Source: an uncultured Gemmatimonadales bacterium (GTDB taxonomy: Bacteria > Gemmatimonadota > Gemmatimonadetes > Longimicrobiales > RSA9). From it: a stretch of 64,000 bases of DNA. Below the pieces are notes generated by a model that was not told where the DNA came from, searched no databases, and saw only the letters and a list, made by a program, of their open reading frames with translations. This document shows, piece after piece, positions 11,819 to 43,860 of the stretch (position 1 is its first letter; each line of letters starts with the position of its first letter). A program made the position numbers and the translations under genes. The DNA lies in contig OY970192.1 in the NCBI GenBank assembly GCA_963708135.1, positions 2,752,001 through 2,816,000 on the forward strand, read 5' to 3'.

Positions 11819-12823
11819 CCGGCGGCGCTGGCCGGGCGCGGCGGCGGGGGCCGGGCCGAACCTCGCGGCGGGCGTGAACACGCGGTGCGTGCGGGTGTCG
11901 AGCGTGATCGTACGCGCGCTGGCCTGGGTCGGCACCGTCGCCACGACGGAGTACTTGTCGGGCGAATCCTCGTGGACGACGGTGAGCGTTCCGTCGCGGC
12001 CGTTGGGGCTGAAGGCGAGGCCGGTGGCCGGATCGAACGCCGCCCCGTCCACGCCTCGCCCGATGGGGACGGTGGTGACGAGCTTGTGGCCGGCGGCGTC
12101 GCTCACGGCCAGGATCCCGTTGCCGCAGGCGGAGAAGAGGCGGTGGTGGGCGTTGTCGAGCGCCAGCCCGCTCGGCTCCTCGCAGGGGGCGATCGACCAG
12201 CGCGCCTCCTCCTTCAAGGTCCGGCCGTCGAAGGCGACGATCTCGCCCTTGTCCTCGATGTTCGCGAAGATCCGCCCGGTGCCGTCGGCCACCGCCTCCT
12301 CCGGCTTGCCGCCCAGGGCGAGCGTGCCGATGACCTTCCCGCCGGCGGCATCGATCGCGGTCGTGTTGCCGCTCCGTCCGTTGAAGGTGAAGACGCGCCT
12401 GGTCGCCGGGTCGTAGAGGATGGCGTCCGGGTTCTGCCCCGTCGTGGCGATGGAGCCGGTGGTGGCGAGCGTCTTCGTGTCGAACACCGTCACCTGGTTC
12501 GCACGCCCGTCGCTCACGAAGCCCCGCCCGAGCTCCGGTGCGATCGCGATCCCGTGCACCCCCTGCGTGTTCGCGATCTCGCCGACCGGCTTGCCCGTGT
12601 CCAGGTCGAGCACGTGCACCCGGTCCGCGTGGGACACGTACAGGCGCCGCGCCGCCGCGTCCGCGTACAGGTAGTCCCAGAACCCCTGGTCCCCGCCTAC
12701 CGCCCAGCGGGCCGTGACGTGGTAGCCCGCGCCCTGCGCGCGCAGGACCGCGGGAAGGACCAGGACGAGCGCGACGAGAAGCGATCCTGCGCGGGATGGG
12801 CGAGACGGACGCCGCGGTTCCAT
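11771..12823 (-). CDS. YncE-family beta-propeller (YVTN-like) secreted protein
   Basis: Signal peptide, WDYLYAD, GVHGIAIAPELGRGFVSDG, NPDAILYDP, ARTITLD. Confidence 0.85.
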   Translation of the reverse strand: MEPRRPSRPSRAGSLLVALVLVLPAVLRAQGAGYHVTARWAVGGDQGFWDYLYADAAARRLYVSHADRVHVLDLDTGKPVGEIANTQGVHGIAIAPELGRGFVSDGRANQVTVFDTKTLATTGSIATTGQNPDAILYDPATRRVFTFNGRSGNTTAIDAAGGKVIGTLALGGKPEEAVADGTGRIFANIEDKGEIVAFDGRTLKEEARWSIAPCEEPSGLALDNAHHRLFSACGNGILAVSDAAGHKLVTTVPIGRGVDGAAFDPATGLAFSPNGRDGTLTVVHEDSPDKYSVVATVPTQASARTITLDTRTHRVFTPAARFGPAPAAAPGQRRRPPMIPGSFTVLVVGP

Positions 12824-12915
12824 GAGAAGCTCTCCGGTGAGGGATGCTGGATGGGACAGCAAGGAGTACAGACAACCTGCGGCCCGCGTTTGTCCGCGGA
12901 AAGGCGCACATGCAC

Positions 12916-12966
12916 TTGACTCCACGGTCGCCGTCATGCATCCTTTCCCCTGAACATTTCATGGAA
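12916..12966 (+). promoter_or_regulatory. Putative padR promoter and operator
   Basis: TTGACT (12916) N17 CATCCT (12939); imperfect palindrome TCCCCTGAA-CAT-TTCATGGAA at 12946-12966. Confidence 0.45.
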
Positions 12967-13092
12967 GGCGACGACGCGCGCCCGAGACTCCCCCGCCGCG
13001 CCGACCAATGCCCGGGCGCCGATTCGTCGGGTGGGCCGGGTGTGCCGATCCGCTGTACCGAGAAAGGGAGGCGCGAGCTGGCCGAAACCAAC

Positions 13093-13410
13093 ATGGCCCT
13101 GCTCCAGGGCACGCTGGACCTCCTGGTCCTGAAGACGCTCATGTGGGGACCGCGGCACGGGTATGCGATCGCGGGGTGGATCCTGGACACGAGCGGCGAG
13201 GAGCTGCGGATCGAGGACGGGGCGCTGTACACGGCGCTGCACCGGATGGAGAAGCGGGGCTGGCTGGCCTCGGAGTGGGGGCTCTCGGAGAACAACCGGA
13301 AGGCGAAGTATTACCGGCTGACGGCCGCGGGCCGGCGGCAGCTGGCGGCGGAGTCGGCGCTGTGGGAGCGGTACGCGGCGGCGGTGTTCCGGGTGCTGCG
13401 GACGGCATGA
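13093..13410 (+). CDS. PadR family transcriptional regulator (ADOP-associated type)
   Basis: LLQGTLDLLVLKTL..GPRHGYAI, GALYTALHRME, WGLSENNRKAKYYRLT; may start at CTG 13078. Confidence 0.93.
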   Translation: MALLQGTLDLLVLKTLMWGPRHGYAIAGWILDTSGEELRIEDGALYTALHRMEKRGWLASEWGLSENNRKAKYYRLTAAGRRQLAAESALWERYAAAVFRVLRTA

Positions 13411-13440
13411 GCCGGGAAGCGCGCCGGACCAAGCGTACGA

Positions 13441-13768
13441 GCACCGGGAGGTCTCGATCCAAGGGCGCAGCCGTGCGTGCGCGCAGCGGTGAACTCCCCA
13501 CCCGTACCCGGGCGCAGAGACGGCTGGGGAGTTGACCGCGGTATTCGTTGTCAACTCCCCAAGGGCCGCAGGTTCATGGGAACGATTGGGGAGTTTGCCG
13601 CGCTATTCGCAGTCAAGTCCCCAAGCATCGATTCCACAGCCGACCCGTGGGGACTTTCCAGCCCTCGCGGGCTGGCGTCATCCCGCATGCCGGTGGGGAC
13701 TTGCCTGCCCTCGCGGGCTGGATGCGTCATCCCGCATCCCGGTGGGGTCTTCCTCCCCTGGCGGGCCC
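13441..13768. repeat. Dispersed palindromic repeat element, copy 2, with extra ~47-bp tandem tail
   Basis: Boxes at 13489, 13525, 13550, 13587, 13612, 13648; then about 2.5 copies of GTGGGGACTT.C..CCCTCGCGGGCTGG..CGTCATCCCGCAT.CCG. Confidence 0.85.
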
Positions 13769-24566: not shown

Positions 24567-24868
24567 GTCCCGGAATGGAGGTCGTGTGTCCCGCGCCGGC
24601 CGGTGGACCGGTGCGCCGGCGGCCGCGTCCCGCGACGGCGCACGCAATCGTCGCGCCGGGCACTGGTCTTGCCCTTCCACCTCTCCGCCCGGCCGGAGTG
24701 GGCGAGTGGGAGAGTGGGAGACGGGGCAGCTGCCGGGCGAACCGCGCAGCGCCGGGCCCGAGAGACGTTCGCGGGCTGCGCCGGCTCCGAGCGGGGGGCC
24801 AGCGCGCGGGCTCCACCCACCCGCTCCCGCCGTCCAAGCCTGGCCGTGACAGCCGCGAGAGGAGAGAG

Positions 24869-25252
24869 ATGGACGATCGCTCGAGGAAGACGCTGTGGAT
24901 GCTGGCGGGCGCGGGCGCGGCCGCGGGCGCCGCGATCGCGACGCGGAAGGCGATCGGCGCCGGCTGGCGCGCGGCCACGGGCGAGGATGCGCCGAGAAAC
25001 CCGGTCGCGTCGGACGTGGACTGGCCCGCCGCCCTGCTCTGGGGCGCCGTCGTCGGCGCCGCCGCGGGCCTGGCGCGCGTGGCCGCCCGCCGCGGCGCCG
25101 CGCTGGCCTGGCACCGGGCGACGGGGGACAAGCCGCCTCCTATACCGACCCGTTTGGGCTGTGCCCGCCCCAGGACATTGAGCAAGGTCCGCAATGCAAT
25201 CGCGTCCACTTTTTGGGCCTTGGCGGCACTCTGGTCGTGGGCGGCGGAGTAA
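24869..25252 (+). CDS. DUF4235 family protein with a foreign C-terminal extension after 25140
   Basis: W...TGEDAP.NP....V.W..AL.W.....A..G.AR..A.RGAA..W...TG..PP pattern; composition changes after 25140. Confidence 0.75.
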   Translation: MDDRSRKTLWMLAGAGAAAGAAIATRKAIGAGWRAATGEDAPRNPVASDVDWPAALLWGAVVGAAAGLARVAARRGAALAWHRATGDKPPPIPTRLGCARPRTLSKVRNAIASTFWALAALWSWAAE

Positions 25253-25283
25253 CCGGGGCCGTTGGCCTGGTTCCATATACACC
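25140..25283 (+). pseudogene. Orphan Rhs toxin tip fragment (YTDPFGLC-PPQDIEQGPQCNRV...), truncated by an IS21 end
   Basis: 25140-25166 is identical over 27 bp to 34725-34751 of Rhs cassette 2. Confidence 0.75.
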
Positions 25284-25497
25284 TGTAAAGGGACCCCCAA
25301 ATCTACGCAGTTGGGCGACACCCAGATTTGCGCACGCGGCCGAGCGGGTTAGCTGACGGCGGCACCTCCTTTCCTGGCGTGAGTGGAGCCGGGCTTGAGG
25401 AGCCCGTCGAGTTCACGCAGCCGGTAGCTGCGCCCGTCGATATGGGACGATGTGGATGTGGTGGAGCAGCCGGTCGACGATCGCGGTGGTGAGGATC
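25284..25497 (-). mobile_element. istB: IS21-family right-end remnant: terminal repeat plus istB C-terminal fragment
   Basis: Minus strand encodes [28 protein letters not shown]; the end starts TGTAA at 25284 and holds GGCGACACCCAGATTTGCGCAC, similar to GGAGACATCCAGTTTTACGCAC near 37283. Confidence 0.8.
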
Positions 25498-25776
25498 CCA
25501 TGGCCCACGGAGTGGCGGCGCTTCCGCGAGGAGGAGCGCCGCATGTGGGAGGCGTCGAATCCGGGCGCGTGGGAGGAGCACGACCCGATGCTGGAGAGCC
25601 CCGCCGCGGAGATGCGCCGCTGGGAGCTGTGGCGCCGCGCCCGCCGCCGCGCGCGGCGGGCCGCCGAGCTGGCCGAGCAGTCGGCGGACGTCTACGGCGA
25701 GGATTACTTCCGCCGCGTCCCCGGCGTGCGGCGCCGGCTGGCGGGGCGGAGGCGGGGAGGGTGGAGAGGGCACTGA
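25498..25776 (+). pseudogene. Possible 5'-truncated hypothetical gene fragment
   Basis: Protein-like frame [18 protein letters not shown]...YGEDYFRR abutting the istB remnant; no family recognised. Confidence 0.3.
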
Positions 25777-25880
25777 GCGGAGCGAGAGGGGCGCCCGGCC
25801 CGGTGTCCCCGATCCTTCGCGGCGCGGGCCTGCGTCGTCCGGGGTAGTGCCGCCGGCGTATACACGAGTGTATTCGCATG

Positions 25881-25963
25881 GACTCCTGACAGACTCCTGA
25901 CAGACTCCTGACAGACTCCTGACAGACTCCTGACAGACTCCTGACAGACTCCTGACAGACTCC
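25881..25963. repeat. Perfect 11-bp tandem repeat (GACTCCTGACA) x7.5
   Basis: Seven exact units plus GACTCC; preceded by palindrome ATACAC-GA-GTGTAT (25860-25873). Confidence 0.97.
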
Positions 25964-26172
25964 CGGTTGCTACTCCGATCCAGTCGGCCACACTCTACAA
26001 CTCGCCGCCATCTGGATCCGAAGCAGACCAGATCCCCTCAACGCGGCGCCGGACCGGATCTGGTCCACTCCCCCGGGCTGGGACGGTCCTTCACCGACCG
26101 CGAAGAGGCGGGCGGATCGCGCTCGATCCGTGAGCGCGGACGCACGCTTCTCCGCTCCGCGGGTGGAGATCG

Positions 26173-27018
26173 TTGCGCAGCACCGGCCACTGGCGTCCTC
26201 TCAAGCTCCTCGCCCTTCTGGGCGCAACGGGCAGTGCGTCCGGCGAACTGGACGAAGCCGTCCGTCCGCGGGCGGAGATCGTGCTCGCGGCGGGGTGGAG
26301 CGAAGTGGTGGCGTCCCTTACCTCGCCTGCACCGCCGGCAGCGTTCGTGGCGGCGGGCGAGCTCATCGATGAGAACGCCCGCAACACCCTGCGAGCGCTA
26401 CACCGGCGCGGACTGCTGGTCCCCAGCGCGGTCTACCTGCGCGAGCCGAATTGGGAGCTCGTCGAGCGCGTCTACCCGCTGTACGGCTTCGGCGTGCGTC
26501 TCCTCTTCCGGAGGGCGGACCTCGGGGACCGTCTGCACGACCTGCTTGGCGGATCCGCCGAGGACGTGGCCAACCACATCGTGCGGCGCCTGGGGATCCG
26601 GGACGAGGCGGTCGTCCGCCTGCTCCGCCTCCTGTCCCGCGGAGGCGAGGGCGTCCGCGGCAGCCCGTCCGATCTCGCCGCGCGACTCGCGCTGAGCCGC
26701 ACCCGCCTGTATCAACTGCTCCGGGCCGCCGGTCTGCCCGCGGTCGAGCAATGCCAGTATTTCTTCCGGCTGCTGCCGGCCCTGTCCCTGATCTCGAAAG
26801 GCGGAAACGTGGAGGACGCGGCGTACATGGCGGGGTTCTCCGATGCCACGGCGCTGCGGAAGTCCCTGCGCTCTCGGCTCGGTACGTCGCTTTCCGATCT
26901 CAGAGCCGGACCCGCCGGCTCCCGGATCGCGGACCTCTGGCTGGAGCACCACGGCCTCAAGGGCTCAGATGCAGATTCAACCCCAGCAGGTCCTGAAGGG
27001 CGGCCTGCCTCGTGCTGA
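26173..27018 (+). CDS. AraC-type HTH transcriptional regulator (start uncertain)
   Basis: DLAARLALSRTRLYQLL (HTH1) and NVEDAAYMAGFSDATALRKSLRSRLG (HTH2). Confidence 0.75.
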   Translation: MRSTGHWRPLKLLALLGATGSASGELDEAVRPRAEIVLAAGWSEVVASLTSPAPPAAFVAAGELIDENARNTLRALHRRGLLVPSAVYLREPNWELVERVYPLYGFGVRLLFRRADLGDRLHDLLGGSAEDVANHIVRRLGIRDEAVVRLLRLLSRGGEGVRGSPSDLAARLALSRTRLYQLLRAAGLPAVEQCQYFFRLLPALSLISKGGNVEDAAYMAGFSDATALRKSLRSRLGTSLSDLRAGPAGSRIADLWLEHHGLKGSDADSTPAGPEGRPASC

Positions 27019-28442
27019 GGACGCCGTCGACCGCGGTGCGGAAGCTGTCGTTCAGGAGCTCCGCATCGGGCGGCCTGGCGGGGTAGAGTCCCTTGAAGGA
27101 GGCGTAGGCCTGCTCGAGCTTTGCCCGGATCGGCGCCACTTCGGCGGATCTCTTGAGCGGCTCGTCGGGTGTGGGCAGGGACCGGGCGAGCAGCTCGAGG
27201 GAGCTGATCAGGAGCGCGCCGAGCCCGGCCGCGAAGCTCCGGGTCGCGGAGGACCTGGCGAGCTGGAATCCGCCCGCGAGCGTGCTCACGCCGATCACCA
27301 CGTAGTGGACGACGTCCTTCCGCCGCGTTCGCCGCTCGGCCTCCGCCCGATACGTGCCTTCGAGCGAGTCCATCCTGACCAGATCCTGTGATATGCCGCG
27401 CGTGATGAACTCGTAGCGGGTCGCCATGATCTTGACCGGGTCGGTCGGATTCGGCAGCACGCGCAGCGTCAGGGCCAGCGCGCCGGAGCCGAAGCCGTCG
27501 GATGCGGTGAGGGTGATCGGCACGGATGCGGCGTACTGTCCCGGGGGCACGAAGGTCTCGGGCGCTTCCCAGGAGAGCCGCGCGGTCCTCGGGTCGAAGC
27601 TCGCGCCCGGCGGCAGCCCCACGGCCGAATAGGGCGATCGGATCCGAGTTCGGGTCGCGCGCCGGGAACGCGCGCGTGAAGCGCACCCCCTCGTACAGAT
27701 CGACCGCCTCGGCCCGCGCGGCGAAAGCCGGCGGCAACTGCTGGTCGGTCACGAGCAGCCGGACCGTGTCCTCGGCGCTGCCGCCTCGGGTATCGCGCAC
27801 CTGGAAGCGCACGCGGAACGAGGTGCCGGGCTTCACCATCCCGGGTTCGGGCGTCCAGCGGAACGTGGCGCTGGCGGGATCGAAGCTGGACTGCGGCGGG
27901 AGGTCGGGCAGCCCGTAGGCGGCATAGGAGATCGCGTCGCCATCGGGATCTCGCGCGTTGACCCTGATCTCGACGGTGCTGCCGAACGCGACGCTGCGGT
28001 CTCCGGCCGGCGTGAGCACGGGCGGGTGCTCGGCCGGCTCGACCAGCAGCGCGTAGGCACGCGATGCCGTGCCAACGCCGGCCTGGTTCGCCGAGACGAC
28101 GATCGGATGGCCGCCCACGTCGCTCGTGGTGGGCGTCCACTGGAGAACCCCGTGCTGCCGGTCGAACTCGGCGCCGGGCGGCAGCCCCTGGATCGAGAAT
28201 TCGAGCGGCGCGGCCGGCACGGCGCCGGTCACCAGGAACTGGGCCCGGAACGGCTCGCCCACCGGGGCCGTGTTCGCGTGGATGTCGAGCAGCTCGAGCT
28301 GCGCGTGCACACGGCTCGGCGAGAACCCCAGCAGTGCCGCCGCGCCGATCAGGAGCGCCCCGGCTCGCGCGAGCCGTCCGCTGCCGTGGTTGCTCTCCGC
28401 GAGAGCGGCCATCACGCGAAACGCCCTGCGTGCGCGAGCCAT
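26957..28442 (-). CDS. Signal-peptide protein with three Ig-like (He_PIG/cadherin-like) domains and a C-terminal 2-TM domain; frameshift near 27633
   Basis: GLPPGAEFD....L.WTP, ARDPDGDAISY, ARDPNSDPIA(Y)SAVGLPPGASFDP; the two ORFs join by removing one C; GGAGG RBS 8 nt before ATG 28442. Confidence 0.75.
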
Positions 28443-28504
28443 CGAGACATCCTCCTCTGGAGTGGAAGCTCGGGCCTCCCCATGCTCCGGCCCGCTGGCT
28501 CTCC

Positions 28505-28665
28505 AGTGTAAGGCGGCCCCCCCGGGGCGCGAGGTTCCAACGTCCTGCGGAGAGGTTCCAACGTACACGGGTGGTGAGCCTCGCGGGCCCCGGCGGCCTG
28601 TACGTTGGAACCTCTGGTCTGGACGTTGGAACCTCGACCGCTCGTGGAAACGCGATAGATAGGAT
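28505..28665. promoter_or_regulatory. Divergent promoter region with four 15-bp boxes forming one large palindrome
   Basis: GAGGTTCCAACGTCC 28531, GAGGTTCCAACGTAC 28552, GTACGTTGGAACCTC 28600, GGACGTTGGAACCTC 28621; box1/box4 and box2/box3 are exact reverse complements. Confidence 0.75.
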
Positions 28666-28733
28666 GGCGCCACAGCCGGGGAAGCGGCCTGCTTCGTTCC
28701 CCCGGGCTCATCCCTCCACCAGGGAGCGCCATC

Positions 28734-31700
28734 ATGTCAAAGGGAATCGCTCGACGCCGGGCCAGCGTCTACGGCGGGATCCGGATCCTCACGCTCGGGG
28801 CCATCCTCCTCCTCGCGGCGCGCCCCGCCTCGGCCGCCACGGGCGGCCCGGGCGTCGCGGGGCGCGCCCACCGGGACGTTCTGCCGACCGTCACGGCAAC
28901 CAACTCGCCCATGACCGTGCCGCCCAACACGGGCGGCCACGGCGCGACGTTCCAGATCGACAACAGCGGCAATCCCACCACGACGTACGACCTGGGCTGC
29001 TCCTTCGTCGCGCCCGTCACATCCTGTTCGGTTCAGAGCTCGATCACGATCCCGGCCGGCGGCTCGGCCAATGTGAGCATCACGTACGCGGTCGGCTCGA
29101 GCCCCAGCAGCGGATACGTGACGCTCAGCGTCGCCACCCAGGGCGCCTCGCCGGCACGGATCTCGCCCAACCTCCCACCGCCCGCCGAGTACACGAACTG
29201 TTACGTCAACCTCCAGCAGGTGAATCCGCAGGGCGCCCCCACCGTGGATGTCTCGTCGGTCAATCCCGGCTCCCTCACCGACCGCGGTTCCTGCGTGACC
29301 GTGGGCGCCGGCCCGGCGGGCGCTTCCCAGTGCGGCGAGCTGCTCCTCGCCCAGAAGATGCCCGCCTACCGCACGATGAACCGGGACCGCGCCCTCGGGC
29401 TCGTCTACACCAGCGGCACGGCCAAGCCCTACCCGATCGTGCTGGCGAACGTGAGCGTTCCCTCGGGGCTCCAGGGGCCCGACAGCGTGCGCGCGACGCT
29501 CGTGGTGGACGGGACCACCCGCGCCGTGCGCTGGTTCTCGGCTTCGGGCTTCACGCCCGGCGGCGCCGCCCGCCGCATCGCCGTCGGCTTCGACGCGGCC
29601 GCGGCCGGTCTCGGCACCGGCCTGCACGCGTACACGCTCTCCGTGGCCGATGCCTATGCGAACACGGTCTGCGGCGGCTGTCAGACCAGCCAGAGCGGCG
29701 ACCTCGTGGTCGTCAACCGCTCGGGCAGCCTCTATGGAGCCGGGTGGAGCGTGGCCGGCGTCGAGGCGCTCTATCCGAACCAGCGCTCCGGCACGGCCGT
29801 CATGCTCGTCGAGGGTGACGGCAGCGCCGCCGTGTACGAGTCGATCGGCAACAACGCGTATTGCGCCCCGGCCGGCGCCTATCGGGACACGATCTTCTAC
29901 GAGACCGCCGTCGACCCGAGCGGCAGCTCGACGACGCACTTCCGGCGCCGCCTCCTGGACGGCGCCCAGATCTACTTCAACACCGCGGGGCAGGAGACCT
30001 GGGTCCAAGATCGAGTCGGCAACAAGGTCCAGTACAGCTATACCGGTGGGGCGGGCACTGGACTCTCACAGGTGCGGATCTCGCCCTGGGACCAGAGCAA
30101 GACCTACAGCTTCGCCTACGGCAGCACGGGCGCGAAGTTGAGCGCGATCACGGATCCCGCCGCGCGGGCCATGAACGTGACCGTGGACGCCTCCGGGAAT
30201 CTGACCGATTTCTACCTCCCCGACCGGCCCGACTCCGCGATCGCGCTGACCTACAGCGGACACCTCCTCACGCGCTGGACCTCGCGCCTCGGACACGCGA
30301 CGAAGTACGCCTACACGGGCGAGACGGCGCTCCTCGCCGCCGACACCCTGCCGCAGGTCACGGCCGGAACGCCGGTCACGACGTTTACTCCTCTCCAGAG
30401 CCGCGGCCTTGCCACCCTTTCGAGCGGCCTCAACACCAGCTACGCGGCCGCGAGCGCCGACTTCGAGGTGCACGGGCCGCGCACGGACACCCTGCAGATC
30501 ACGAAGTTCTACCTGGACCGCTTCGGCGCACCGGATACGGTCATCGACGCCGTCGGGCACCGGACCGTGCTCGAGTACGACGCCGCTTTCCCGCTGCTGG
30601 CCAGAGAGGTCGACTGGCCGAACGGCCGCACCACCACGACCGCCTACGACGGCTCGGGCCGGGTCGCCTACGCTGCCGACCTCACCTCGAGCGCCGGCGC
30701 GGATTCCGTGACGTACGTTTACTCGACCGCGGCACGAGACAAACCATATCAGGTGAGCGTGCCCCGCGATGGCACCAGCCGCGACCTGACGACCTATACC
30801 TACAACGCCACGGACGGCACGCTGGACAACGTCGTGGACCCGCGCGGGCACGAGACCAGCTTCACGTACAACAGCCGCGGCCAGGTGGCGAGCGCGACCG
30901 AGCACTCCGTGCCCGTTTACGGCGCCGGCGTGCAGGATCTCACCACGATGCTCGGCAACGACGATTCCGGCACCGGCAACCTGCTCTCGAGCACCACGCC
31001 CGGCGGCGAAACCACGAGCTACGGCTACGACGCCTACGGGCTGTTGCGCCGCGTGAGCAACCCCGCCGGTGACAGCACCACGTTCGTGCACGACCTGCTC
31101 GGCAACGAGACCGAGATCGATCAGTACGAGGGCGTCTATCAGCGCCCCAGCCGCTTCACCTTCGACGCCGACGGCAACCGCGTCGGCGCCTCGGACCCGC
31201 GCCTGCTCGCCCGGATCTGGCAGTACAACGCCCTGGGCGAGGACACCGCGATGATCGACGCGAAGAACGCAACCCAGCTTCACGCCTACGACCTCGCCGG
31301 GAACCTCACCCTGGGCACGAACCGCGACGGCAGCACCGTCACGATCCACTACGACGGCGACAACCGGCCGAAGCAGCGGACCCTCTCGAACACCTACCAG
31401 GGCGGTGTCCTCGGGGTGCGCGGCACCACGATCAACCTCCAGTACGACGCCGCCGGCAACCCGACCGTGCTCGACGAGGACAGCTCCAAGGTCACCCGCA
31501 CCTTCAACCGGGAGGGCACCCTCGCCTCGAGCGTCCAGCTCCACAAGTGGTCGGGAACGACGCGGACGTACACGTCGGCCTACCAGTGGGCGGGCCGCCA
31601 CACGCTGACCACGCCGAAGGGGACCTACACCTCGATCTTCGGCCCGGGCGGGCTCGTCAGCCAGATCCAGACGCCGGCGGGCGAGGTGATCTCCTTCCAT

Positions 31701-33257
31701 TACGACGCGCTCGGCCGGCGCGACACGGTCTCGCTGCCCAACGGCACCAAGACGAGCTACGGCTACACCACGGACGGGCAGCTCGCGCGCGTCGTCTCGG
31801 TCAATGCGACGACGGGCTACACCCCCGTGGACCTCACCTTCGCCTACGACGCCGCGGGCCGGCCGGACTCGGTCGTGAACCGGGGCAGGGAGACGAACGG
31901 AGGGACGTGGGTCAGCCACTGGGCCTACGACCACCGGGGGAAGATCCGCTACACGGACCAGATGAAGAACGGCACCTACGCCTCCATGGACAGCCTGATC
32001 TACGATGCGGCCGGCAACCGCGTGAAGGAGTACCTGTGCGCCCGCGGCAGCCTGTGCGCCGACAGCGTGCTCTTCCAGCTCGACGGCCTCTCAAACGAGG
32101 TGACCCGCCGGACCCGCTACTACAGCGGCGTCTCCGGTCCGGAGAGCGTCAACTTCAGCTACGACGCGAACGGCAACGAGACGCTCGAGCAGGGCACCTA
32201 CGCCGGGACCGGCTACACCTGGCACCGCTACTACGACGCCGCCGGGCACCTGTCCGGCACGGCCGCCGGCACCGCCTTCTTCCGCTACGACGGCCTGGGC
32301 CGAAGGATCCGCGGCGCCTACGCACATTCGGGCGCCGAGACCTTCTACGACACCCAGAACGTGATCGAGCACGCGACGGTCGAGTTCGTGGATGGGCCCG
32401 GGCTGGACGATCCGCTCCTGATGTACGGCAACAGCGCCTGCCCGCTCGGCAGCCTGAGCGACGAGCGCGCGTATTTCGTCACCCACGGCGGCCGGCTCTT
32501 CAGCTTCCAGGGCCCGGGGGGCGAGAACTGCATCCAGGACACGAACGGCAACGAGCTCCAGGCCTGGAGCGTGTGGGGCTCGCAGTCGGGCGCGATCCGC
32601 GAGAGCTACAGCTTCGCCCCCGCCCGCAACGGCGACTCGAACGAGGAGACCGGCGCGTTCTTCCGCAACCGGTACTACGATGCCAGATTGGGGCGGTTCA
32701 CACAGGAAGACCCGATCGGGTACGCCGGCGGGCTCAACCTCTACAGCTACAACGGGGACAACCCGGCGAGCTATACGGATCCGTTTGGGCTCTGCCAGCC
32801 AATGCCGCAATGCTTGCAGGCCCAGTCCCTACTCGGGGTCAGTCGGTCGCCCGGCGTCTTGCTGCCCGGCTTGGCGCGATTCGGGGCGGCGCTCCGTCAA
32901 TTCGGCCGTGCCCACGGAGCCGAGCTGGCTCAAGCCGCTGCCGTGGTCCTGAGTGAGGGAATGTCCGCGGAGGGCGAGGAACTGCTATCCTCGGATAACC
33001 TGCTCGGGCGCAATCCTGTTCGCGCCGGCAACCGAATCAACACTGACCTGCCGGGCGGGCGGGCAGTGGCGAAGAGCATCTTCAGGAACCTCACAGAGGG
33101 GCAGTCGCTCATTCAGGAACCCCTGGGGAATGGTGGAGTGCGCCGCTTCTCTCCGAATGGCACCCAGATTCGTATGAACCCGGACGGCACGACTCGGCTT
33201 GACCTGCCCCGAGGGCCGCTCGGTCGAGAAACCATCCACTTCAATGACTTGTGGTGA
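28734..33257 (+). CDS. Rhs/YD-repeat polymorphic toxin 1 with N-terminal signal peptide
   Basis: Many YD repeats, RNRYYDARLGRFTQEDPIGYAGGLNLYSY...PASYTDPFGL core end, lower-GC C-terminal tip; Sec-like leader ending ARPASA. Confidence 0.93.
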   Translation: MSKGIARRRASVYGGIRILTLGAILLLAARPASAATGGPGVAGRAHRDVLPTVTATNSPMTVPPNTGGHGATFQIDNSGNPTTTYDLGCSFVAPVTSCSVQSSITIPAGGSANVSITYAVGSSPSSGYVTLSVATQGASPARISPNLPPPAEYTNCYVNLQQVNPQGAPTVDVSSVNPGSLTDRGSCVTVGAGPAGASQCGELLLAQKMPAYRTMNRDRALGLVYTSGTAKPYPIVLANVSVPSGLQGPDSVRATLVVDGTTRAVRWFSASGFTPGGAARRIAVGFDAAAAGLGTGLHAYTLSVADAYANTVCGGCQTSQSGDLVVVNRSGSLYGAGWSVAGVEALYPNQRSGTAVMLVEGDGSAAVYESIGNNAYCAPAGAYRDTIFYETAVDPSGSSTTHFRRRLLDGAQIYFNTAGQETWVQDRVGNKVQYSYTGGAGTGLSQVRISPWDQSKTYSFAYGSTGAKLSAITDPAARAMNVTVDASGNLTDFYLPDRPDSAIALTYSGHLLTRWTSRLGHATKYAYTGETALLAADTLPQVTAGTPVTTFTPLQSRGLATLSSGLNTSYAAASADFEVHGPRTDTLQITKFYLDRFGAPDTVIDAVGHRTVLEYDAAFPLLAREVDWPNGRTTTTAYDGSGRVAYAADLTSSAGADSVTYVYSTAARDKPYQVSVPRDGTSRDLTTYTYNATDGTLDNVVDPRGHETSFTYNSRGQVASATEHSVPVYGAGVQDLTTMLGNDDSGTGNLLSSTTPGGETTSYGYDAYGLLRRVSNPAGDSTTFVHDLLGNETEIDQYEGVYQRPSRFTFDADGNRVGASDPRLLARIWQYNALGEDTAMIDAKNATQLHAYDLAGNLTLGTNRDGSTVTIHYDGDNRPKQRTLSNTYQGGVLGVRGTTINLQYDAAGNPTVLDEDSSKVTRTFNREGTLASSVQLHKWSGTTRTYTSAYQWAGRHTLTTPKGTYTSIFGPGGLVSQIQTPAGEVISFHYDALGRRDTVSLPNGTKTSYGYTTDGQLARVVSVNATTGYTPVDLTFAYDAAGRPDSVVNRGRETNGGTWVSHWAYDHRGKIRYTDQMKNGTYASMDSLIYDAAGNRVKEYLCARGSLCADSVLFQLDGLSNEVTRRTRYYSGVSGPESVNFSYDANGNETLEQGTYAGTGYTWHRYYDAAGHLSGTAAGTAFFRYDGLGRRIRGAYAHSGAETFYDTQNVIEHATVEFVDGPGLDDPLLMYGNSACPLGSLSDERAYFVTHGGRLFSFQGPGGENCIQDTNGNELQAWSVWGSQSGAIRESYSFAPARNGDSNEETGAFFRNRYYDARLGRFTQEDPIGYAGGLNLYSYNGDNPASYTDPFGLCQPMPQCLQAQSLLGVSRSPGVLLPGLARFGAALRQFGRAHGAELAQAAAVVLSEGMSAEGEELLSSDNLLGRNPVRAGNRINTDLPGGRAVAKSIFRNLTEGQSLIQEPLGNGGVRRFSPNGTQIRMNPDGTTRLDLPRGPLGRETIHFNDLW

Positions 33258-33787
33258 TGCTGACTCACTATCTCTGCGCCGTCACCGCGTCAACGTTGGC
33301 CAACCTCGAACTGATGGCACTTGACTCGTGGAGTGCTGTTGACATGCTGAGGCCGGTTCAGCGGCCTTCTCTGGCTTCCGCGCGCACTGGCCGCGTTCGA
33401 GTTCGGGGCGGCGCAGAGTTCGTCATTACATCCGAGCCGGTTGAGTTGACGAAGAAGCTGGAAGTGTTTCGGCTCGGCGTGCGAGCACCGGACTTCTCAG
33501 CCGACAAGAGGTTTCGACCTCCGTCGTATGAGGAATCAAACGAAATGTGGAGTGCATTTCTCGGGCGACACCACCATCTTTACTTGCTGCGCCGCAGGGT
33601 CGCCGTTGATGCGCCCGCGGGGATTGGGTCTGTCGAGGTGGATGATGTTGCAATGTTTCGCGACCCGTCAGGTCAGCGCCTCTACATCGCGGCAGACACC
33701 GGGCAGCCGGGAGCAATTGTCGTATGTCGACAACCGGAGGACCTTCCGAATCCGGGTTCTGAGGTTGTGCGGATTCGCGCGCTTTAG
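33257..33787 (+). CDS. Candidate immunity protein for Rhs toxin 1
   Basis: TGATG overlap with the Rhs stop; lower GC like the toxin tip; no family recognised. Confidence 0.6.
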   Translation: MLTHYLCAVTASTLANLELMALDSWSAVDMLRPVQRPSLASARTGRVRVRGGAEFVITSEPVELTKKLEVFRLGVRAPDFSADKRFRPPSYEESNEMWSAFLGRHHHLYLLRRRVAVDAPAGIGSVEVDDVAMFRDPSGQRLYIAADTGQPGAIVVCRQPEDLPNPGSEVVRIRAL

Positions 33788-33879
33788 CGAGAAGAGGGCG
33801 TAGCCGCGAACGCTCGCGGCGATATCGCAAAACGAAGCGGCCTCGCCCAGCCGGAGCTGAGCGAGGCCCTGACGGCCCG

Positions 33880-35196
33880 GGCGTATGACGTCCGGGCTCG
33901 GATCCGCTACAGGGATCTCCAGAAGAACGGCACCGTCGCCTTGTTGGACAGCCTGGTCTACGACGAGGCGGGCAACCGCGTGAAGGAGTACCTCTGCCCG
34001 CGCGGAACGATCTGCGGCGAAAGCGTGCTCTACCGGATGGATGAGTTGTCGAACGAGACGATCCGGCGGGTCCGCTACTACAGCGGCATCTCCGGCCCGC
34101 ACACCCTCGCCTTCACCTACGACGCGAACGGCAACGAGACGCTCGAGCAGGGGAACTACGCCGGGACCTCCTACGCCTGGCACCGCTACTACAGCGCAGC
34201 CGGCCAGCTCTCCGGCACTCACCCCGATACCGCCTTCTTCCGCTACGACGGTCTGGGCGCCGGATCCGCGGCGCGTACGCCCACTCGGGCGTGGAAACGT
34301 TCTACGACGGTCAGAACGTGATCGAGCACGGCACGGTCGAGTTCGTGGACGGACCCGGGCTCGACGACCCCCTCATGATGTACGGCACCGCCGCCTGCCC
34401 GCTCGGCGGGACGGACGACCGGGCGTACTTCGTGACCTTCGGCGGCCGGCTCTTCAGCTTCCAGGGTCCGGGCGGCGAGAACTGCATCGAGAACTCGTCC
34501 GGCCAGGAATACATGGCGTGGAGCACGTGGGGCTCGCAGTCGGGCGCCATCCGCGAGAGCTACAGCTTCGCCCCGGCGCGCAACGGCGACTCGAACGACG
34601 AGACCGGCGCCTTCTTCCGCAACCGCTACTACGATGCGAGATTGGGACGGTTCACGCAGGAGGACCCGATCGGCTACGCCGGCGGGCTCAACCTGTACAG
34701 CTACAACGGGGACGACCCGGCCAGCTATACCGACCCGTTTGGGCTGTGCCCCTTCACCGGCTCAGACGCATCCTGCTACCAACTGTTGGCGAACTGGGGT
34801 GCAAGCACCGGGCGAGACTGGGCGGTGAACCTGGGCGCCGGGCTCGAGGCCTTCGCCGCCATTGGGAACGCCATTGAGGGTGTGGAATGTCACAACGGAG
34901 TCTGCAGTGCCTCAGGTCCTCCTGTGGTGCCCGCGCTTGGCGCTGGCGGCGGCGCCGTTGCTGGCAAAATTACCGGGTTCACCAAGCATGGATTAGAGCA
35001 AGCAATGGGGAGAGAAGGAGTTGGTGTTTCGAACGAATCTATTATTGATGCGGTGAGAAATCCACAACGGACGATTCAGCAAGCCAAGGGCGCCGTGACA
35101 TACGTCGGTGAGAATGCTACGGTTATTCTCAACAAAGCAGGTGAGGTCATAACCGCCTGGGCGCGCAATAGCGCTGCATGGAGGATTCAGCCGTGA
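33880..35196 (+). pseudogene. Orphan Rhs cassette 2 (core homology arm plus different toxin tip); frameshift near 34259
   Basis: Close paralogy to Rhs1 about 31925-32795 (YDEAGNRVKEYLC, AWSTWGSQSGAIRESYSF); tip ITGFTKHGLEQAMGR...ATVILNKAGEVITAW; no leader. Confidence 0.88.
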
Positions 35197-35444
35197 CACG
35201 TCGGTATGCGATGACCGATAAGTTCCTTTCCGACCTGATCGAGCAGGTGCTACGGTCGCGCCTCCAGGACCCCGTTGTACTGCTGAGCGCGTTGCGCCGG
35301 CAGCCACTCGGAGAGGACGACAGAGAGGAGATGCGAGGGGTTCTCGCCGACGAGCTGGTTGAAAACGGACTGGGCCCGGACGGTGAACCGAACGAGCGGG
35401 GAAATTTCATTGAAGCAGCTATTGACTGGCTCGGTCACCGCTAA
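35193..35444 (+). CDS. Candidate immunity protein for Rhs cassette 2
   Basis: GTGA overlap with the toxin stop, GGAGGA RBS; small acidic protein with GL..D.EPNERG..IE..ID. Confidence 0.75.
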   Translation: MTRRYAMTDKFLSDLIEQVLRSRLQDPVVLLSALRRQPLGEDDREEMRGVLADELVENGLGPDGEPNERGNFIEAAIDWLGHR

Positions 35445-35493
35445 CGCGGGCCAATCACCCGCATTCGTGCACGCCCTGCGGGGAGCCCGGCCG

Positions 35494-36928
35494 GAGCTAT
35501 TGTCAAATGTTGTGGATTGGGGTGATCAGGCGGCGCTCCTCCGCCCTTCTTGATCCTCCCTCTCTTGCATGATGCCGTCGGTGAACTGGACCTCCGCCCG
35601 AACGAGGGGGAGGAGGTGGGCGCCGTCGAGGCGCCGCCACCGCTGGCTGGCCATGTCCAGGAGCTTGTAGGCGAACACCAGCCCGCGCGTTCTCGAGCCC
35701 GCTCCCTTCGTCACCCGCTGCCGGAGCCGCACGGTCGCGAAGGTGCTCTCCACCGGATTGGTGGTGCGCAGATGCTTCCAGTGTTCGGCCGGGAAGTCGA
35801 AGAAGGCCAGGAGCTGGTCCTGGTCGCGCACGAGGGACGCCACCGCCTTGGGGTACTTGGCGCCGTACTCTTCGCGGAAGCGCTCAATCTCCTCCTGGGC
35901 CGCCGCGCGGCTCTCCGCGTTCATGATCTCGCGCAGATGCGCTTTCGCTTTCGGCTGGAGCCGCTTGGGCAGCTTGTCCAGCACGTTGGCCAGCCGGTGC
36001 ACCCAGCAGCGCTGCTCCCGCGTGTCGGGCCAGACGTCGCGCGCGGCCGCCCAGAAGCCGAGCGCGCCATCCCCTACGGCCAGGACGGGAGGGCGCATGC
36101 CGCGCCTCGTCAGATCGCGCAGGAGCGCCGCCCAGCTCTCCGTCGATTCGCGGTAGCCGTCCTCGATGGCCACGAGCTCCTTGGTCCCGTCCGGGCGCAC
36201 TCCGATCACGACGAGCGCACACAGGCGGTCCTCTTCCAGCCGGATCCGGAAATGCACCCCGTCCACCCAGACGTAGACGTAGTCTCGGTCCGAGAGATCG
36301 CGCCGCCGCCAGGCCCGGTACTCCTCCTCCCAAGCTCCAGTCAGGCGGCTGATGACGCTCGGCGACAGCCCCGCTGTGGCCTCCGCTCCGAGCAGCGCCC
36401 GCAGCGCCTCCTGAAAGTCCCCGGTCGAGAGCCCGCGCAAATAGAGCACCGGCAGCACCTCCGCCACCTTGGGACTGCGCCGCATGTACGGCGGCAGGAT
36501 CTCGCTCGTGAAGCGCTGGCGCGTCCCCTCCACCACCCGTCGGTCATTCACCCGCGGCGCGGCGACCTCCACCGTCCCGGCCCCGAGCGTCACGCGTCGC
36601 GGCCGCGCCTTCCCGTTGCGCACCACGAGCGCGTGTCCCGCCTCGTCCCGCTCGCCCCGGTAGCGCTCCACGTAGGCGGCCACCTCCGCCTCCAGCGCCA
36701 CCGCCAGCATCCGCCGCGCGCCCTCACGCGCGAGCTCGTCCAGCGTGAACTCCAGCCCCCCCGCTTGCTCCGCAGGGGCGTCCATGAATAGCTTCAGCAT
36801 GGGTGGCGTCTCCTTCCCCCCGCCGGCCAGCGGGGCTTCGCGTTTCGGTGAACGAACCAACGCGGAAGGATACGCCGCCTTTTTTCACCCCATCAAGTCA
36901 CGCGATCCACAACTTCTGAAAATACCTC
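35494..36928 (-). mobile_element. Intact IS256-family insertion sequence, 1435 bp
   Basis: 24-bp terminal inverted repeats matching at 20/24 (GAGCTATTGTCAAATGTTGTGGAT vs GAGGTATTTTCAGAAGTTGTGGAT); 9-bp TSD GCCCGGCCG at 35485-35493 and 36929-36937. Confidence 0.95.
35526..36800 (-). CDS. IS256 family (Mutator-type) transposase
   Basis: YVYVWVDG, LAVGDGALGFW, QRCWVH, HLRTTNPVES. Confidence 0.95.
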   Translation of the reverse strand: MLKLFMDAPAEQAGGLEFTLDELAREGARRMLAVALEAEVAAYVERYRGERDEAGHALVVRNGKARPRRVTLGAGTVEVAAPRVNDRRVVEGTRQRFTSEILPPYMRRSPKVAEVLPVLYLRGLSTGDFQEALRALLGAEATAGLSPSVISRLTGAWEEEYRAWRRRDLSDRDYVYVWVDGVHFRIRLEEDRLCALVVIGVRPDGTKELVAIEDGYRESTESWAALLRDLTRRGMRPPVLAVGDGALGFWAAARDVWPDTREQRCWVHRLANVLDKLPKRLQPKAKAHLREIMNAESRAAAQEEIERFREEYGAKYPKAVASLVRDQDQLLAFFDFPAEHWKHLRTTNPVESTFATVRLRQRVTKGAGSRTRGLVFAYKLLDMASQRWRRLDGAHLLPLVRAEVQFTDGIMQEREDQEGRRSAA

Positions 36929-36956
36929 GCCCGGCCGGTTGGCCGGGCTCTTCGTA

Positions 36957-37253
36957 TCAGGAGGCGTTCATGAGGCCGCGCTTGTCGAGGAGGGCCTCGA
37001 CGAAGGTGATGATGGCGCGCTGCTCGGCGGGGGGCAGATCGGCAGCAGCGCGCAGGCGCTCGAGGAGCCGACCGGCGCGGGGACTGGCCACCTCATCGCG
37101 CACAGGCTTCAGGCCGAGGAGCTCGTCGGCGCTGACGCCGAGGGCGCGGCAGAGGTCGGGGAGCATGGGTCCCGGGGGCTGGGCGTTGTCGGCCTCGTAG
37201 TAGGCGATGACGCGCTGAGAGACGCCCACGGCCTCGCCCAGCTTTTCCTGGGA
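36957..37253 (-). pseudogene. XRE-family HTH regulator, 5'-truncated by IS21
   Basis: SQEKLGEAVGVSQRVIAYYE....QPP...L..LCRALGVSADELLG; first helix missing at the IS boundary. Confidence 0.85.
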
Positions 37254-38438
37254 TGTAGGAGACACCGCCAGATTGCTTCTCTGGAGACATCCAGTTTTAC
37301 GCACCTGAGTTGACGGGACCCGCCGGAGCGGGTCCACTCCGGGTCGACACCGACCCGGAGCGAACGCGTGAAACTGAGCGAGGAGCAGATCACCGTGGCG
37401 AAAGGGATGAAGGAGCGAGGGACGTCGGTCCGCCAGCTCGCGAAACAGCTCGGGGTGACGGAAGGAGCGCTTCGATACCGGCTGGCGAAGGCGAGGGAGC
37501 GGACAGCGGACGGGCGCGCGCACCAGCCCACCGCAATGGACGGCTATGAGGAAGCCGTTGTGGCGATCCAGGAGCGTCTGAACGACGGGCGGCTGAGAGA
37601 GGACTGGGGCCGGCCGTGCCAGGTGCGGGAGATCTATGACGCGCTGGTGCGAGAGCACGGTTACCGAGGCAGCTATCAGGCAGTCGTGCGCCATCTCCGG
37701 CGGCGCCATGGGAGGCCGAAGGTGCGGGCGCTGCGGCGAGTCGAGACGCCCCCGGGGGTGCAGGCGCAACACGACTGGTTCGAGGTGCGAGTGCCGATCG
37801 GCGGCAAGCGCCGGAAGGTCCAGGCGTTCGTGGGCACGCTCTCCCATAGCCGGGCGCGCCTCTGCTGGGCGAGCTGGGATCAGGGTCAGTTGGCGTGGCA
37901 TACCGGGCATCTCGAGCTGTTCCGGCGCTATTGGGGCGTCCCGCTCTGGATCCGGATCGACAATCTGAAGACCGGCGTGGCCTCCGGGGCGGGAGGGAAT
38001 GCGGTGTTGAACCGGTCCTACGAGATTTTCGCCCGCACCTGCGGTTTCGAGGTTGACCCGTGCCGGTCTCGGAAGGGATCGGACAAGGGGAAGACGGAGC
38101 GGTCGGTGCGCACGTTCCGGGGCGCGTTCGGACGTACGCTTCGGAGCGGTGCCGGCTGCCTGGAGGAGCTTCAGCACCGGTTGGACGCCGACGCAGACGC
38201 GCTCCTGGATCGGCTCGAGTGCCCGGTGACCGGCACCTCCGTCCGGGAGGCCTGGCAGGTCGAGCGGGCGTTTCTCCAGCCCATGCCCCGCATGGCCGAT
38301 CCCTTCGACGTGGTAGTGAGCCGAAAGGTCCAGCGGGACTGCCTGGTCTCCCTCGAGGGTCGGCGCTACAGCGTGCCCTTCGCGTGGGTCGGCCGCTTGG
38401 TGGAGATCTGGGGCACCCTGAATCACGTGGTTATCCCG
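37254..38438 (+). mobile_element. IS21-family element, left end plus truncated istA
   Basis: End starts TGTAGGAGACACC at 37254 with an internal GGAGACA repeat; no istB downstream. Confidence 0.85.
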
Positions 38439-38456
38439 TGTCACGATCGGTTGTAA
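37368..38456 (+). pseudogene. istA: IS21 transposase IstA, C-terminally truncated (362 aa)
   Basis: RVETPPG.QAQHDW, RIDNLKT, KGKTERSV (DDE), RKVQRDCLVSLEGRRYSVP. Confidence 0.88.
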
Positions 38457-38492
38457 GCTGGACAGGTGCAGCGGTGTAGAAATGGACACTCC
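38439..38492 (+). mobile_element. Isolated end of a second IS21-like element
   Basis: TGTCA start and tandem CGGTTGTAAGCTGGACA / CGGTGTAGAAATGGACA repeats, at the istA/Rhs3 junction. Confidence 0.55.
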
Positions 38493-42008: not shown

Positions 42009-42027
42009 GGTAACAAAGGATGCGCTC

Positions 42028-43104: not shown

Positions 43105-43540
43105 TGTAGGAGGGCCGGCGCGCACCGCGCCAGCCGGCCCTCCCCTGGTGTTGATTCCCCCAACCTACCGCGGCGGTTCCATCGTGTACAGCCGCCGCTC
43201 CTTCGCGAGCGCGAACATGAGGCGCGTCGCCTTCCGCGCGATCGCGACCAGCACCTTCTTCTTCGGCGTGTTCGGGTTCCTCTGGAGCGCCCGCTCGTAG
43301 TCCGCCCGCGTGCTTCCTCTTGCCTGCGTCGACTCCGGCGACGGCGACGCCGCGCTGGGCCCGGCGGCGCTTCTCGAAACGGCTCATGGTCTCGCTCCTG
43401 TTGAAGGCCCAGAGCCGTACCGAGGGCCGCACCGATGGCGGAATCGCGCTCTATGGGGCCCTGAGCGGCTCCTGCCGGGACTGAGGCCGAACCCGGAAGC
43501 GTATCACCGCCGGGATCGAGCGCGGAATCCGGCTGGATAG
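43105..43540 (-). mobile_element. Internally deleted IS110-family element (boundaries tentative)
   Basis: ATG 43387 MSRFEKRRRAQRGVAVAGVDAGKRKHA (RuvC-like first Asp) joined near 43306 to ADYERA...KKKVLVAIARKATRLMFALAK...* (stop 43165); CAGGAG RBS. Confidence 0.75.
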
Positions 43541-43860
43541 AAGGCGGTCGAGCGCACCTGAGGCGATGGAGCTGCGGGGGGTATGCTGAAGGGTTTGGGT
43601 GTTCGGGACGGGGTCAGGACGGGTGACTGAGACGCTCGCGGCGTGCGCGGGTCCGACCGGTAACCTCGGGCGCGCGGGCCGAGCGTGTCCCGGCGCGGCG
43701 GATCTCGGTTCGCGCCGGGATCGTCGCCGCGCACGGGGACGGGAGGGACGCGGCGAGGCCGGCCGCGGTCCCCCACTCCCCCACTCCCCCACTCTCGTCA
43801 TCCCGCCGCCGCGCTGCGGAGGCGGCCCGCGCCGGCCGCGAACCGCGACGCTGACGCTAC

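Follow-up and report, generated by a model that had tools for sequence, protein, structure and literature searches.

How does the toxin tip of an Rhs gene come to be joined to the end of an unrelated chromosomal gene? The question is raised by a 64,000-nt stretch of DNA, here called the window, from an uncultured Gemmatimonadales bacterium (GenBank assembly GCA_963708135.1, contig OY970192.1, positions 2,752,001 to 2,816,000). The source genome is one 5.45-Mb contig of ~70% G+C. At position 25140 of the window a gene of the DUF4235 family passes directly into the first codons of an Rhs-type tip (tip4), and this joint is the left border of an ~18.5-kb Rhs island that extends to 43691. Comparison with other loci points to an IS110/IS1111-family insertion sequence (IS) that would carry a toxin tip as cargo and would be directed by a guide RNA to the junction of core and tip in Rhs genes. 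In our own judgement it is likely, on the comparative evidence given below, that such a tip-carrying, guide-directed element family exists. That the same family authored the joint at 25140, by an off-target insertion at a half-site mimic that was later eroded, we consider probable, with somewhat less confidence. The features at the joint are:

24869..25139, plus strand: native part of the DUF4235 gene (from translation, Pfam and orthologue C-termini)
25121..25132, plus strand: host 12-mer GGGGACAAGCCG, which resembles the Rhs core end (11/12 to that of Rhs1)
25133..25148, plus strand: the joint, CCTCC/TATACCGACCC (from the junction table and the left-end starts)
25140..25166, plus strand: 27 bp identical to 34725-34751 in Rhs2, encoding (S)YTDPFGLCP (sequence comparison)
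25141..25356, plus strand: remnant of a fourth toxin tip, tip4, of at most 71 codons (frame from TAT at 25141)

The open reading frame (ORF) of the DUF4235 gene starts with ATG at 24869 and now reads through the joint to a stop at 25250-25252. Its product is a DUF4235 family member: it scores 53.1 bits against PF14019 (E 3.3e-14), above the Pfam gathering score of 27, and residues 11-86 align to profile positions 2-77 of 77. Orthologues with 33 to 54% identity were found in 6 of the 40 relatives searched. Their C-termini have the form G-x-x-P-(P/T/S) plus 1-20 residues, then stop. G-x-x-P stands at the matching position in all six, PP is present in four, and five have a basic residue where this gene has K. 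From this pattern it was concluded that ...ATGDKPP (to about 25137) is native and that the gene has lost its own stop codon. One orthologue (L004, from G019) comes from an unpublished genome; the claim of a native end stands without it. A metagenome scan for an uninterrupted DUF4235 end gave a single distant match (37%). An earlier note on this DNA had proposed to recover the uninterrupted 3' end from relatives; with six orthologues at 33-54% identity the native C-terminus can be defined and the empty site cannot.

Two other Rhs loci of the island serve for comparison, the full-length Rhs1 and the orphan tip Rhs2, which has a conventional core arm. The earlier note placed the start of the island at 25140, with 27 bp shared with Rhs2 and a fourth, different tip behind them, and sequence comparison agrees. 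The shared stretch, 25140-25166, is CTATACCGACCCGTTTGGGCTGTGCCC, and the identity falls within the YTDPFGLCP coding stretch, which is conserved in all tips. From TAT at 25141 the tip4 frame reads YTDPFGLCPPQDIEQGPQCNRVHFLGLGG... (also written out as YTDPFGLCPPQDIEQGPQC...) to a stop at 25354-25356. In a genome-wide motif scan tip4 differs from the tips of Rhs1 and Rhs2, from all tips at 0.81-0.84 Mb and from every other tip in the genome. Upstream of the YTDPFGL motif at 25141 lies the DUF4235 gene and not an RHS-repeat core, so that the PxxxxDPxGL junction behind an RHS-repeat core, by which Rhs/YD-repeat tips are recognised, is absent. Tip4 is thus a displaced or cargo tip and not part of an Rhs gene. 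It is not a classical rhs orphan either: there is no core sequence upstream of 25121, and Rhs2 (34041-35196) does have a core arm.

The three junction strings quoted in the earlier note are correct: GGGGACAAGCCG-CCTC-CTATAC at the host side, GGGGACAACCCG-GCGAG-CTATAC at Rhs1 and GGGGACGACCCG-GCCAG-CTATAC at Rhs2. The host 12-mer matches the Rhs1 core end at 11 of 12 positions, a level reached at 45 of 10.9 million positions on both strands (4e-6); the look-alike is thus more than a chance resemblance. To GGGGATAATCCG, the core end of the Rhs genes at 0.81-0.84 Mb, it matches at 10/12 (2e-5 of positions). On the other side of the joint, CTCCTATA is the start of core-fused tips and also, as read by eye, an inverted repeat of the start of the element's left end. 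Tip4 has no core arm, as had been claimed, and its first codons look like the element's own terminus.

Two readings would move or dissolve this joint. If GGGGACAAGCCGCCTCC were a short core arm of the tip, decayed by one substitution and one 1-nt deletion, and not host DNA, the true joint would lie near 25120. The Rhs residues NGDNPAS and the DUF4235 residues TGDKPP do share a frame over GGGGACAAxCCG, and short arms of ~10-30 nt exist at three loci of the element described below (L073, L093, L105). However, the conserved G-x-x-P, PP and basic residue of the orthologues speak against a decayed arm. The PF14019 profile is covered to its last position, so that the stretch reads as the native DUF4235 end. 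We regard a decayed arm as improbable. Mis-joining of the contig at the 27-bp sequence, which is repeated in the genome, is more improbable still and hardly credible. A 27-bp repeat should be far below the read length behind a single 5.45-Mb contig, and the downstream tip is unique in the genome and so leaves no alternative partner.

A six-frame motif scan of the genome found ten Rhs-type YTDPFGLC sites, and an eleventh, YTDPFGSC, was seen later. Four tips have no core: tip4 and those at 838119, 813398 and 810499. The latter three, which answer the earlier note's call for other arm-less tips, all abut the non-coding left end of an opposite-strand IS110-family transposase gene. The transposase (12394-13653 of locus L009 in the source genome) matches PF01548 (DEDD_Tnp_IS110, E 9.6e-24) and PF02371 (Transposase_20, E 3.6e-10). 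It is a DEDD transposase with the IS110 N-terminal and IS116/IS110/IS902 C-terminal domains and belongs to the IS110/IS1111 family. The three copies in the genome share 67-95% protein identity, and their tips differ. The transposase is present in 9 of 401 genomes of the order (E 1e-40 or better) at 18 loci; at 12 of these a core-less [YF]xDPxG tip is encoded by the opposite strand, 160-366 nt upstream of that gene. Scanning a species-genome collection with the transposase alignment gave 35 loci, nearly all from Gemmatimonadota; 18 have a left-end core-less tip, and three of the rest have less than 200 nt of upstream sequence. The 18-locus and 35-locus sets overlap and their members are related, so the counts are not independent.

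Past the other end of the transposase gene, 1.17-2.03 kb beyond its stop, 27 of 36 loci (the three copies of the source genome and 33 others) have an opposite-strand Rhs-type junction, which mostly belongs to a full-length Rhs gene with a full core. Plain insertion of a cargo-less IS into Rhs genes was considered and rejected, since none of 18 loci has a core end directly at the right end. Read in the Rhs orientation, the recurring order is core joined to tip N, immunity gene, right non-coding region, antisense transposase gene, and left end joined to the core-less tip O. Arrays of two or three such units exist (L057). The tip AACPAAPAAS... is core-fused in L056 and lies behind a left end in L057. 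In copy c838 the distance from tip start to left-end terminus is ~3.0 kb and includes a 162-codon tip and a DUF7674 gene; these elements are larger than the compact ~1.2-1.6 kb form that holds a transposase gene and guide only. The left-end start, A-CTCCTATA, and the tip start, (T)CTCCTATA(G), are inverted copies when read by eye and look like the sub-terminal repeats of IS1111-type elements; in the source genome the copies of this terminal repeat read CCTC-TA-ACC with indels, again by eye. Spacings at the left-end joints of relatives are irregular (4, 9 and 12 nt), and between paired joints the positions -6 to -4 vary, which leaves the crossover placed only approximately.

Two side observations concern such arrays. 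The tip start YSDPYGLCPQPACIGCPPPPC flanks one element on either side, at L055:3058 and L055:5968, which would be the outcome had an element re-inserted beside its own copy. At L009:3068-7104 (genome ~829.0-833.1 kb) two duplicated Rhs units are separated by genes for a tyrosine integrase and a primase/helicase-like protein (Zn_ribbon_DnaG, Toprim); the tip at 824610 is identical to that at 834792, which suggests an integrated element inside an Rhs array.

Two or three modules stand in tandem in the right non-coding region. The fold that RNAalifold predicts for 17 chosen copies consists of outer stem, internal loop and inner hairpin, with compensatory changes in 17 of 20 pairs; these 17 sequences had been picked for a good guide match. 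A covariance model built from the RNA copies gave 70 hits in the loci searched, all on the transposase strand. The source genome has 12 model hits, all at 809.6-840.3 kb (among the 150 of 14039 candidates that were scored). The 5' strand of the internal loop covaries with the DNA before the tip: it reads GATAATCCGG where cores end GGGGATAATCCGG, and GGCGACCCGG where cores end AATGGCGACCCGG. Further guides are GGGGATCCGG and GACAACCCGG, and at least eight different guides occur overall. An unbiased comparison took all 26 loci with a right-side junction and located the modules by the model alone; 24 have modules. Loop nucleotides 2-11 match flank positions -15 to -6 at 9/10 or better in 14 of these 24 loci and at 8/10 or better in 17 (mean 8.08), as against a mean of 5.35 and only 17 of 421 at 9/10 or better with the flanks of other loci. 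The loop 3' strand matches the joint of left end and tip at a mean of 8.94/13 (controls 6.55), with at least 10/13 in 6 of 17 own pairs and in 11 of 261 controls. The region would thus encode a structured RNA in which the strands of the loop correspond to the flanks of the target, as is typical of the IS110/IS1111 family. Rfam searches of an intact element gave two chance-level matches only, far below gathering scores.

The guide-specified joint is the tip start, which lies 1.2-2 kb past the conserved non-coding region; this places the tip and its immunity gene inside the element. The DNA recognised is ~20 nt long and consists of the last core codons and the Ser/Thr-Tyr codons, with the joint ~4-6 nt before Tyr. 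The suggestion that the DPxG codons themselves act as the recombination site is not borne out.

GGCCTCC in the right end was tried as a guide and rejected because it is the 3' arm of the inner hairpin. In the elements of two relatives, at L083:4506-4584 and L085:4560-4635, it is the guide of the upstream module that the DNA preceding the cargo tip matches (9/10 and 10/10), and not that of the last module. This flank is not Rhs core, and the modules may provide for alternative landing sites. At L009:1104-1298 (genome 827103-827297) a pair of guide modules lacks a transposase gene; the pair follows the tip and immunity genes that belong to the Rhs gene with junction 828121 and looks like a decayed element.

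These layouts suggest the following course of events. The tip start would be the terminus of an IS110/IS1111-family mobile element found in Gemmatimonadota. In the Rhs orientation such an element would consist of the tip start (one of its sub-terminal inverted repeats), the toxin tip, the immunity gene, two or three guide-RNA loops, the antisense DEDD transposase gene and the left end. If the modules are expressed as RNA, one strand of the guide loop would spell the last Rhs core codons and the other the joint of left end and tip. Insertion at a resident core/tip junction would fuse the cargo tip in frame to the core, and the old tip would end up downstream, core-less, behind the left end. Insertion at this position would account for every layout seen.

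The same scheme can be applied to the DUF4235 joint. In polarity the joint at 25140 agrees with a guide-specified joint between X and tip N, where X is the DUF4235 end, and in position it does so to within one base. The DUF4235 end resembles the half-site read by the guide and may have been hit off target as a 'half-match'. An IS21-type element and deletions would later have destroyed the rest of the tip4 cassette. Before insertion the DUF4235 end would have read ...GACAAGCCGCC, with a stop within a few codons, followed by the DNA now at 43692 onward; a native gene that continued as ...CCTCCTATAC would not fit off-target insertion. Intact elements at non-Rhs look-alikes are found in two relatives. 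In L105 the element is preceded by an iron-sulfur subunit gene and then a tandem repeat (guide match 8/10), and in L073 it lies 45 nt after a PIN-domain gene (9/10). The repeat in L105 (3120-3225), between the iron-sulfur subunit gene and the cargo tip, consists of a 13-nt unit, GGAGGCAGGAGTA, present about seven times. The idea that the DUF4235 end served as a mimic gains from these two cases.

The far side of the island also bears on the joint. The other features of the island and its right flank are:

25349..25511, minus strand: frameshifted C-terminal remnant of an IS21-family IstB gene, overlapping the end of the tip4 frame
28734..33257, plus strand: Rhs1, full length (Pfam RHS_repeat, motif), with its core/tip junction (Tyr codon) at 32772
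34041..35196, plus strand: Rhs2, orphan tip with conventional core arm, junction at 34726
35526..36860, minus strand: IS256-type (Mutator family) transposase (Pfam PF00872, E 1.2e-64)
43105..43691, minus strand: relic of an IS110/IS1111-family element, the right border of the island (blastn, tblastn, alignment)
43692..43860, no strand: host-type DNA right of the island, ~77% GC (composition)
43861-45714, minus strand: convergent ABC transporter gene (Pfam)

The relic consists of a right-end stub (43105-43167), a transposase C-terminus (43168-43317), an N-terminus (43295-43432) and a left end (43433-43688 plus CCC). It keeps 47 N-terminal and 50 C-terminal transposase residues with 77% and 90% identity. 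It is internally deleted and its guide region is gone; its left-end terminus, ...GCCGAGCGTGT-CCC, is intact (alignment A4). The far border of the island is thus an intact left-end element terminus joined to host DNA that is not a tip. The DNA right of the relic was also tried as a decayed tip and rejected: the likeness of CGGATC...TCGGTTCG to the 810499 tip scored 19, and shuffles gave a median of 18 and a 95th percentile of 24. In G017, the relative whose DUF4235 orthologue is the closest, the window genes at 45.8-46.7 kb and 50.7-51.3 kb have homologues (69% and 75% identity) 3.7-6.2 kb downstream of the DUF4235 gene, and no Rhs gene was found in that downstream region. Because synteny is kept there without Rhs, the DNA from 25140 to 43691 looks like an insertion. 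At the DUF4235 loci of the other five relatives no conserved neighbours were found; G017 alone shares two right-flank genes.

A recombinase-independent event is the main rival to off-target insertion. The DUF4235 end resembles the Rhs core end (GGGGACAAGCCG vs GGGGACAACCCG, then GCCT), and a deletion or template switch by illegitimate recombination could have removed the core, with the relic unrelated. The similarity of 11/12 lies directly at the joint, and if the host once read ...AAGCCGCCT, its joining to Rhs ...CCGGCCTCC through the 4-nt overlap GCCT would yield the observed sequence without further change. The region is also heavily rearranged by IS21-type and IS256-type elements. This GCCT overlap, however, is out of register with the 12-mer, and the 12-mer would then be a coincidence at 4e-6. 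Moreover, the joint lies within one base of the family terminus that is used in 27 other loci, the two non-Rhs analogues (L105 and L073) carry intact elements, and the far border is an intact terminus in the orientation expected for an insertion. We therefore hold illegitimate recombination to be unlikely, while giving it more weight than the decayed arm.

Off-target insertion nevertheless has a number of observations against it. Short homology would by itself, with no recombinase involved, give a joint at this place. Next to tip4 there is no transposase, guide loop or immunity gene, and the covariance model finds no guide module in the window. The earlier note's idea of recombinase-driven tip delivery is partly supported, through an agent that the note had missed: core-less tips in the source genome and its relatives are systematically tied to an IS110/IS1111-family DEDD transposase, with a guide that spells the pre-tip DNA. 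At tip4 itself the absence of a recombinase gene or guide favours illegitimate recombination. The look-alike is 5 nt from TAT, as compared with 6 nt in Rhs genes. Hand counts show that the host 10-mer in register, GGACAAGCCG, matches the genome guide GACAATCCGG at only 4/10, and that the 10-mer shifted by one base matches the genome's guides at 8/10. Both non-Rhs analogues are in register. For the DUF4235 joint, slipped pairing or a later loss of 1 nt from CCGGCC must be assumed to explain the one-base shift; the mimic proposed in the earlier note is thus a mimic one base out of register.

The guide match itself has exceptions: 7 of 24 loci match their own guide at 7/10 or less. Three of the misses are arrays that have the left end of another element as their flank (L080, L098, c810), three are loci at 6-7/10 (L075, L076, L088) and one is L093 at 7/10. 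When upstream modules were tried as donor-binding loops, the strands matched neither element end in 13 of 15 modules. Besides its three Rhs genes the island contains an AraC-type gene and elements of the IS256 and IS21 types, far more than a single simple cassette, and with such content the two borders may come from separate events. The relic lies ~1.7 kb after the junction of the third Rhs gene, Rhs3, which is the usual element distance, and so it may belong to Rhs3 and not to tip4. Joining the two host flanks by eye gives no nearby DUF4235 stop in any frame. The support for element activity is entirely comparative. With all this counted, off-target insertion is still the reading that we favour for the joint.

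The distal part of tip4 overlaps the IstB-like remnant, and the tip is thus a stump of at most 71 codons. No Pfam family matched it, and no homologue was found among longer proteins at E 0.001 or better. No recognisable immunity gene is present in its neighbourhood. The motif in the remnant at 25349..25511 is one that we take to be an IstB motif. In a genome-wide family search PF01695 positions 202-225 align at 25440-25511 with E 0.012, below the cut-off, and 38 nt are 87% identical to intact IstB genes; Pfam searches of minus-strand ORFs over the remnant gave no match. Between the tip4 remnant and the AraC-type gene, at 25866-25955, there are eight head-to-tail copies of an 11-nt unit, GACTCCTGACA. 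The AraC-type gene of the island has a paralogue beside the other Rhs locus.

Further along, a small ORF follows Rhs2 at 35178-35444. By blastn, one near-identical copy of the IS256-type element splits another IS110-family element at 0.814 Mb, and one lies at 1.188 Mb. Rhs3 (38466-41727) begins directly after an IS21-type integrase gene (37368-38456) and spans two overlapping frames, 38466-39956 and 39484-41727. Its core end, NDPVDARDPFGA, is of a junction class unlike that of Rhs1 and Rhs2. A minus-strand ORF at 42414-43125, between the genes downstream of Rhs3 and the IS110-family relic, has a weak match to the Phd/YefM antitoxin (E 0.006, below the cut-off). Short repeats of the GAGTGGG type, in opposite orientation, flank the DUF4235 gene and the island at 24690-24790 and 43768-43800; the left block has dozens of partial matches in the genome and represents a dispersed intergenic repeat family.

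As far as the available text of the two papers goes, insertion sequences of the IS1111 and IS110 groups such as IS621 and ISEc11 are guided by a seekRNA or bridge RNA (Durrant 2024, PMC11208160; Siddiquee 2024, PMC11187229). The Gemmatimonadota elements resemble them, within those portions of text, in several respects: the PF01548 plus PF02371 DEDD transposase, putative sub-terminal inverted repeats (here read by eye), an insertion that would be site-specific and leave no long duplication, and a guide with stem, internal loop and hairpin in which the two loop strands spell the DNA that flanks the joint (PMC11208160, PMC11187229). Like the IS1111 group they have a long non-coding region with the guide after the transposase gene (PMC11208160, PMC11187229). 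They differ in that the target is coding sequence (the last Rhs core codons and the Ser/Thr-Tyr codons) and in that the guide region is separated from the right terminus by ~0.9-1.5 kb of cargo, a tip and an immunity gene. The first tip codons themselves form this terminus, so that insertion would make an in-frame gene fusion. They also have two or three tandem guide modules, which no Rfam family matches. According to the accessible part of one preprint, IS621 inserts off target at half-matches (Xie 2026, 10.64898/2026.08.31.748434), and cargo-bearing, expanded IS110 elements are described in the accessible part of another (Hu 2026, 10.64898/2026.08.14.744561). Elements above the canonical 1.5 kb with adaptive cargo, and boundaries where one half-site matches the guide, are features which these partial texts share with our loci. 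The cargo reported in the same portions is plasmid-derived and resistance cargo, and the element is IS621, whereas the elements described here have a cargo of a fixed kind (a tip with its immunity gene) and target the matching toxin gene. In the accessible part of the Hu 2026 preprint (10.64898/2026.08.14.744561) the terms Rhs, toxin and polymorphic do not appear. In the literature covered, with preprint supplements and their possible cargo lists outside its scope, we found no account of a link between IS110 and Rhs or polymorphic toxins. An RNA-guided element of the IS1111/IS110 type with a toxin-gene junction as its target and a toxin tip as its cargo would thus appear to be new.

Exchange of orphan toxin-immunity modules of rhs and contact-dependent inhibition (CDI) systems by homologous recombination has been described (Zhang 2012, PMC3482391, as far as its available text goes). 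The loci studied here resemble classical orphan rhs in that a full Rhs gene is followed by silent cassettes of tip and immunity gene and that old tips give way to new ones; Rhs2 is such an orphan. Work by Koskiniemi (2014) and Jackson (2009) is likewise said to treat orphan rhs/CDI modules and their exchange by homologous recombination. Classical orphans have a core arm for RecA-dependent exchange, whereas the tips found here are armless and bounded by an element terminus or a left end. A second parallel is with integron cassettes, which also form promoter-less arrays with a site-specific recombinase, one conserved site and the newest cassette in the expressed position. IS1111-attC elements, reportedly treated by Post and Hall (2009), have attC sites as their target. 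Unlike in integrons, the recombinase here would be RNA-guided and accompany each cassette, the site of attachment is within a gene, and insertion would create a protein fusion.

On balance we lean, by a small margin of belief, towards regarding the IS1111-like guide-RNA elements of Gemmatimonadota as a dedicated delivery system for toxin tips, with the DUF4235 joint as its fossil at a look-alike site; the multiple modules may give a second landing site outside Rhs. To about the same modest degree we favour the corollary that each insertion adds a new toxin domain in frame, supplies the immunity gene that matches it and leaves the old tip stored behind, which would build integron-like arrays. 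The intact copies at 0.81-0.84 Mb of the source genome and at loci L072-L096 make this mechanism directly testable. They also provide natural pairs of guide and target, and off-target sites, for a recombinase class that is under development for genome editing. If the mechanism is true, bridge/seekRNA recombination would be used in nature to make in-frame protein fusions. Shuffling of C-terminal toxin domains in polymorphic toxins has so far been explained by homologous recombination via core arms. A mobile RNA-guided recombinase that carries a tip and its immunity gene would be a second, active mechanism of tip swapping, and it would explain both core-less orphan tips and toxin tips stranded at unrelated genes.

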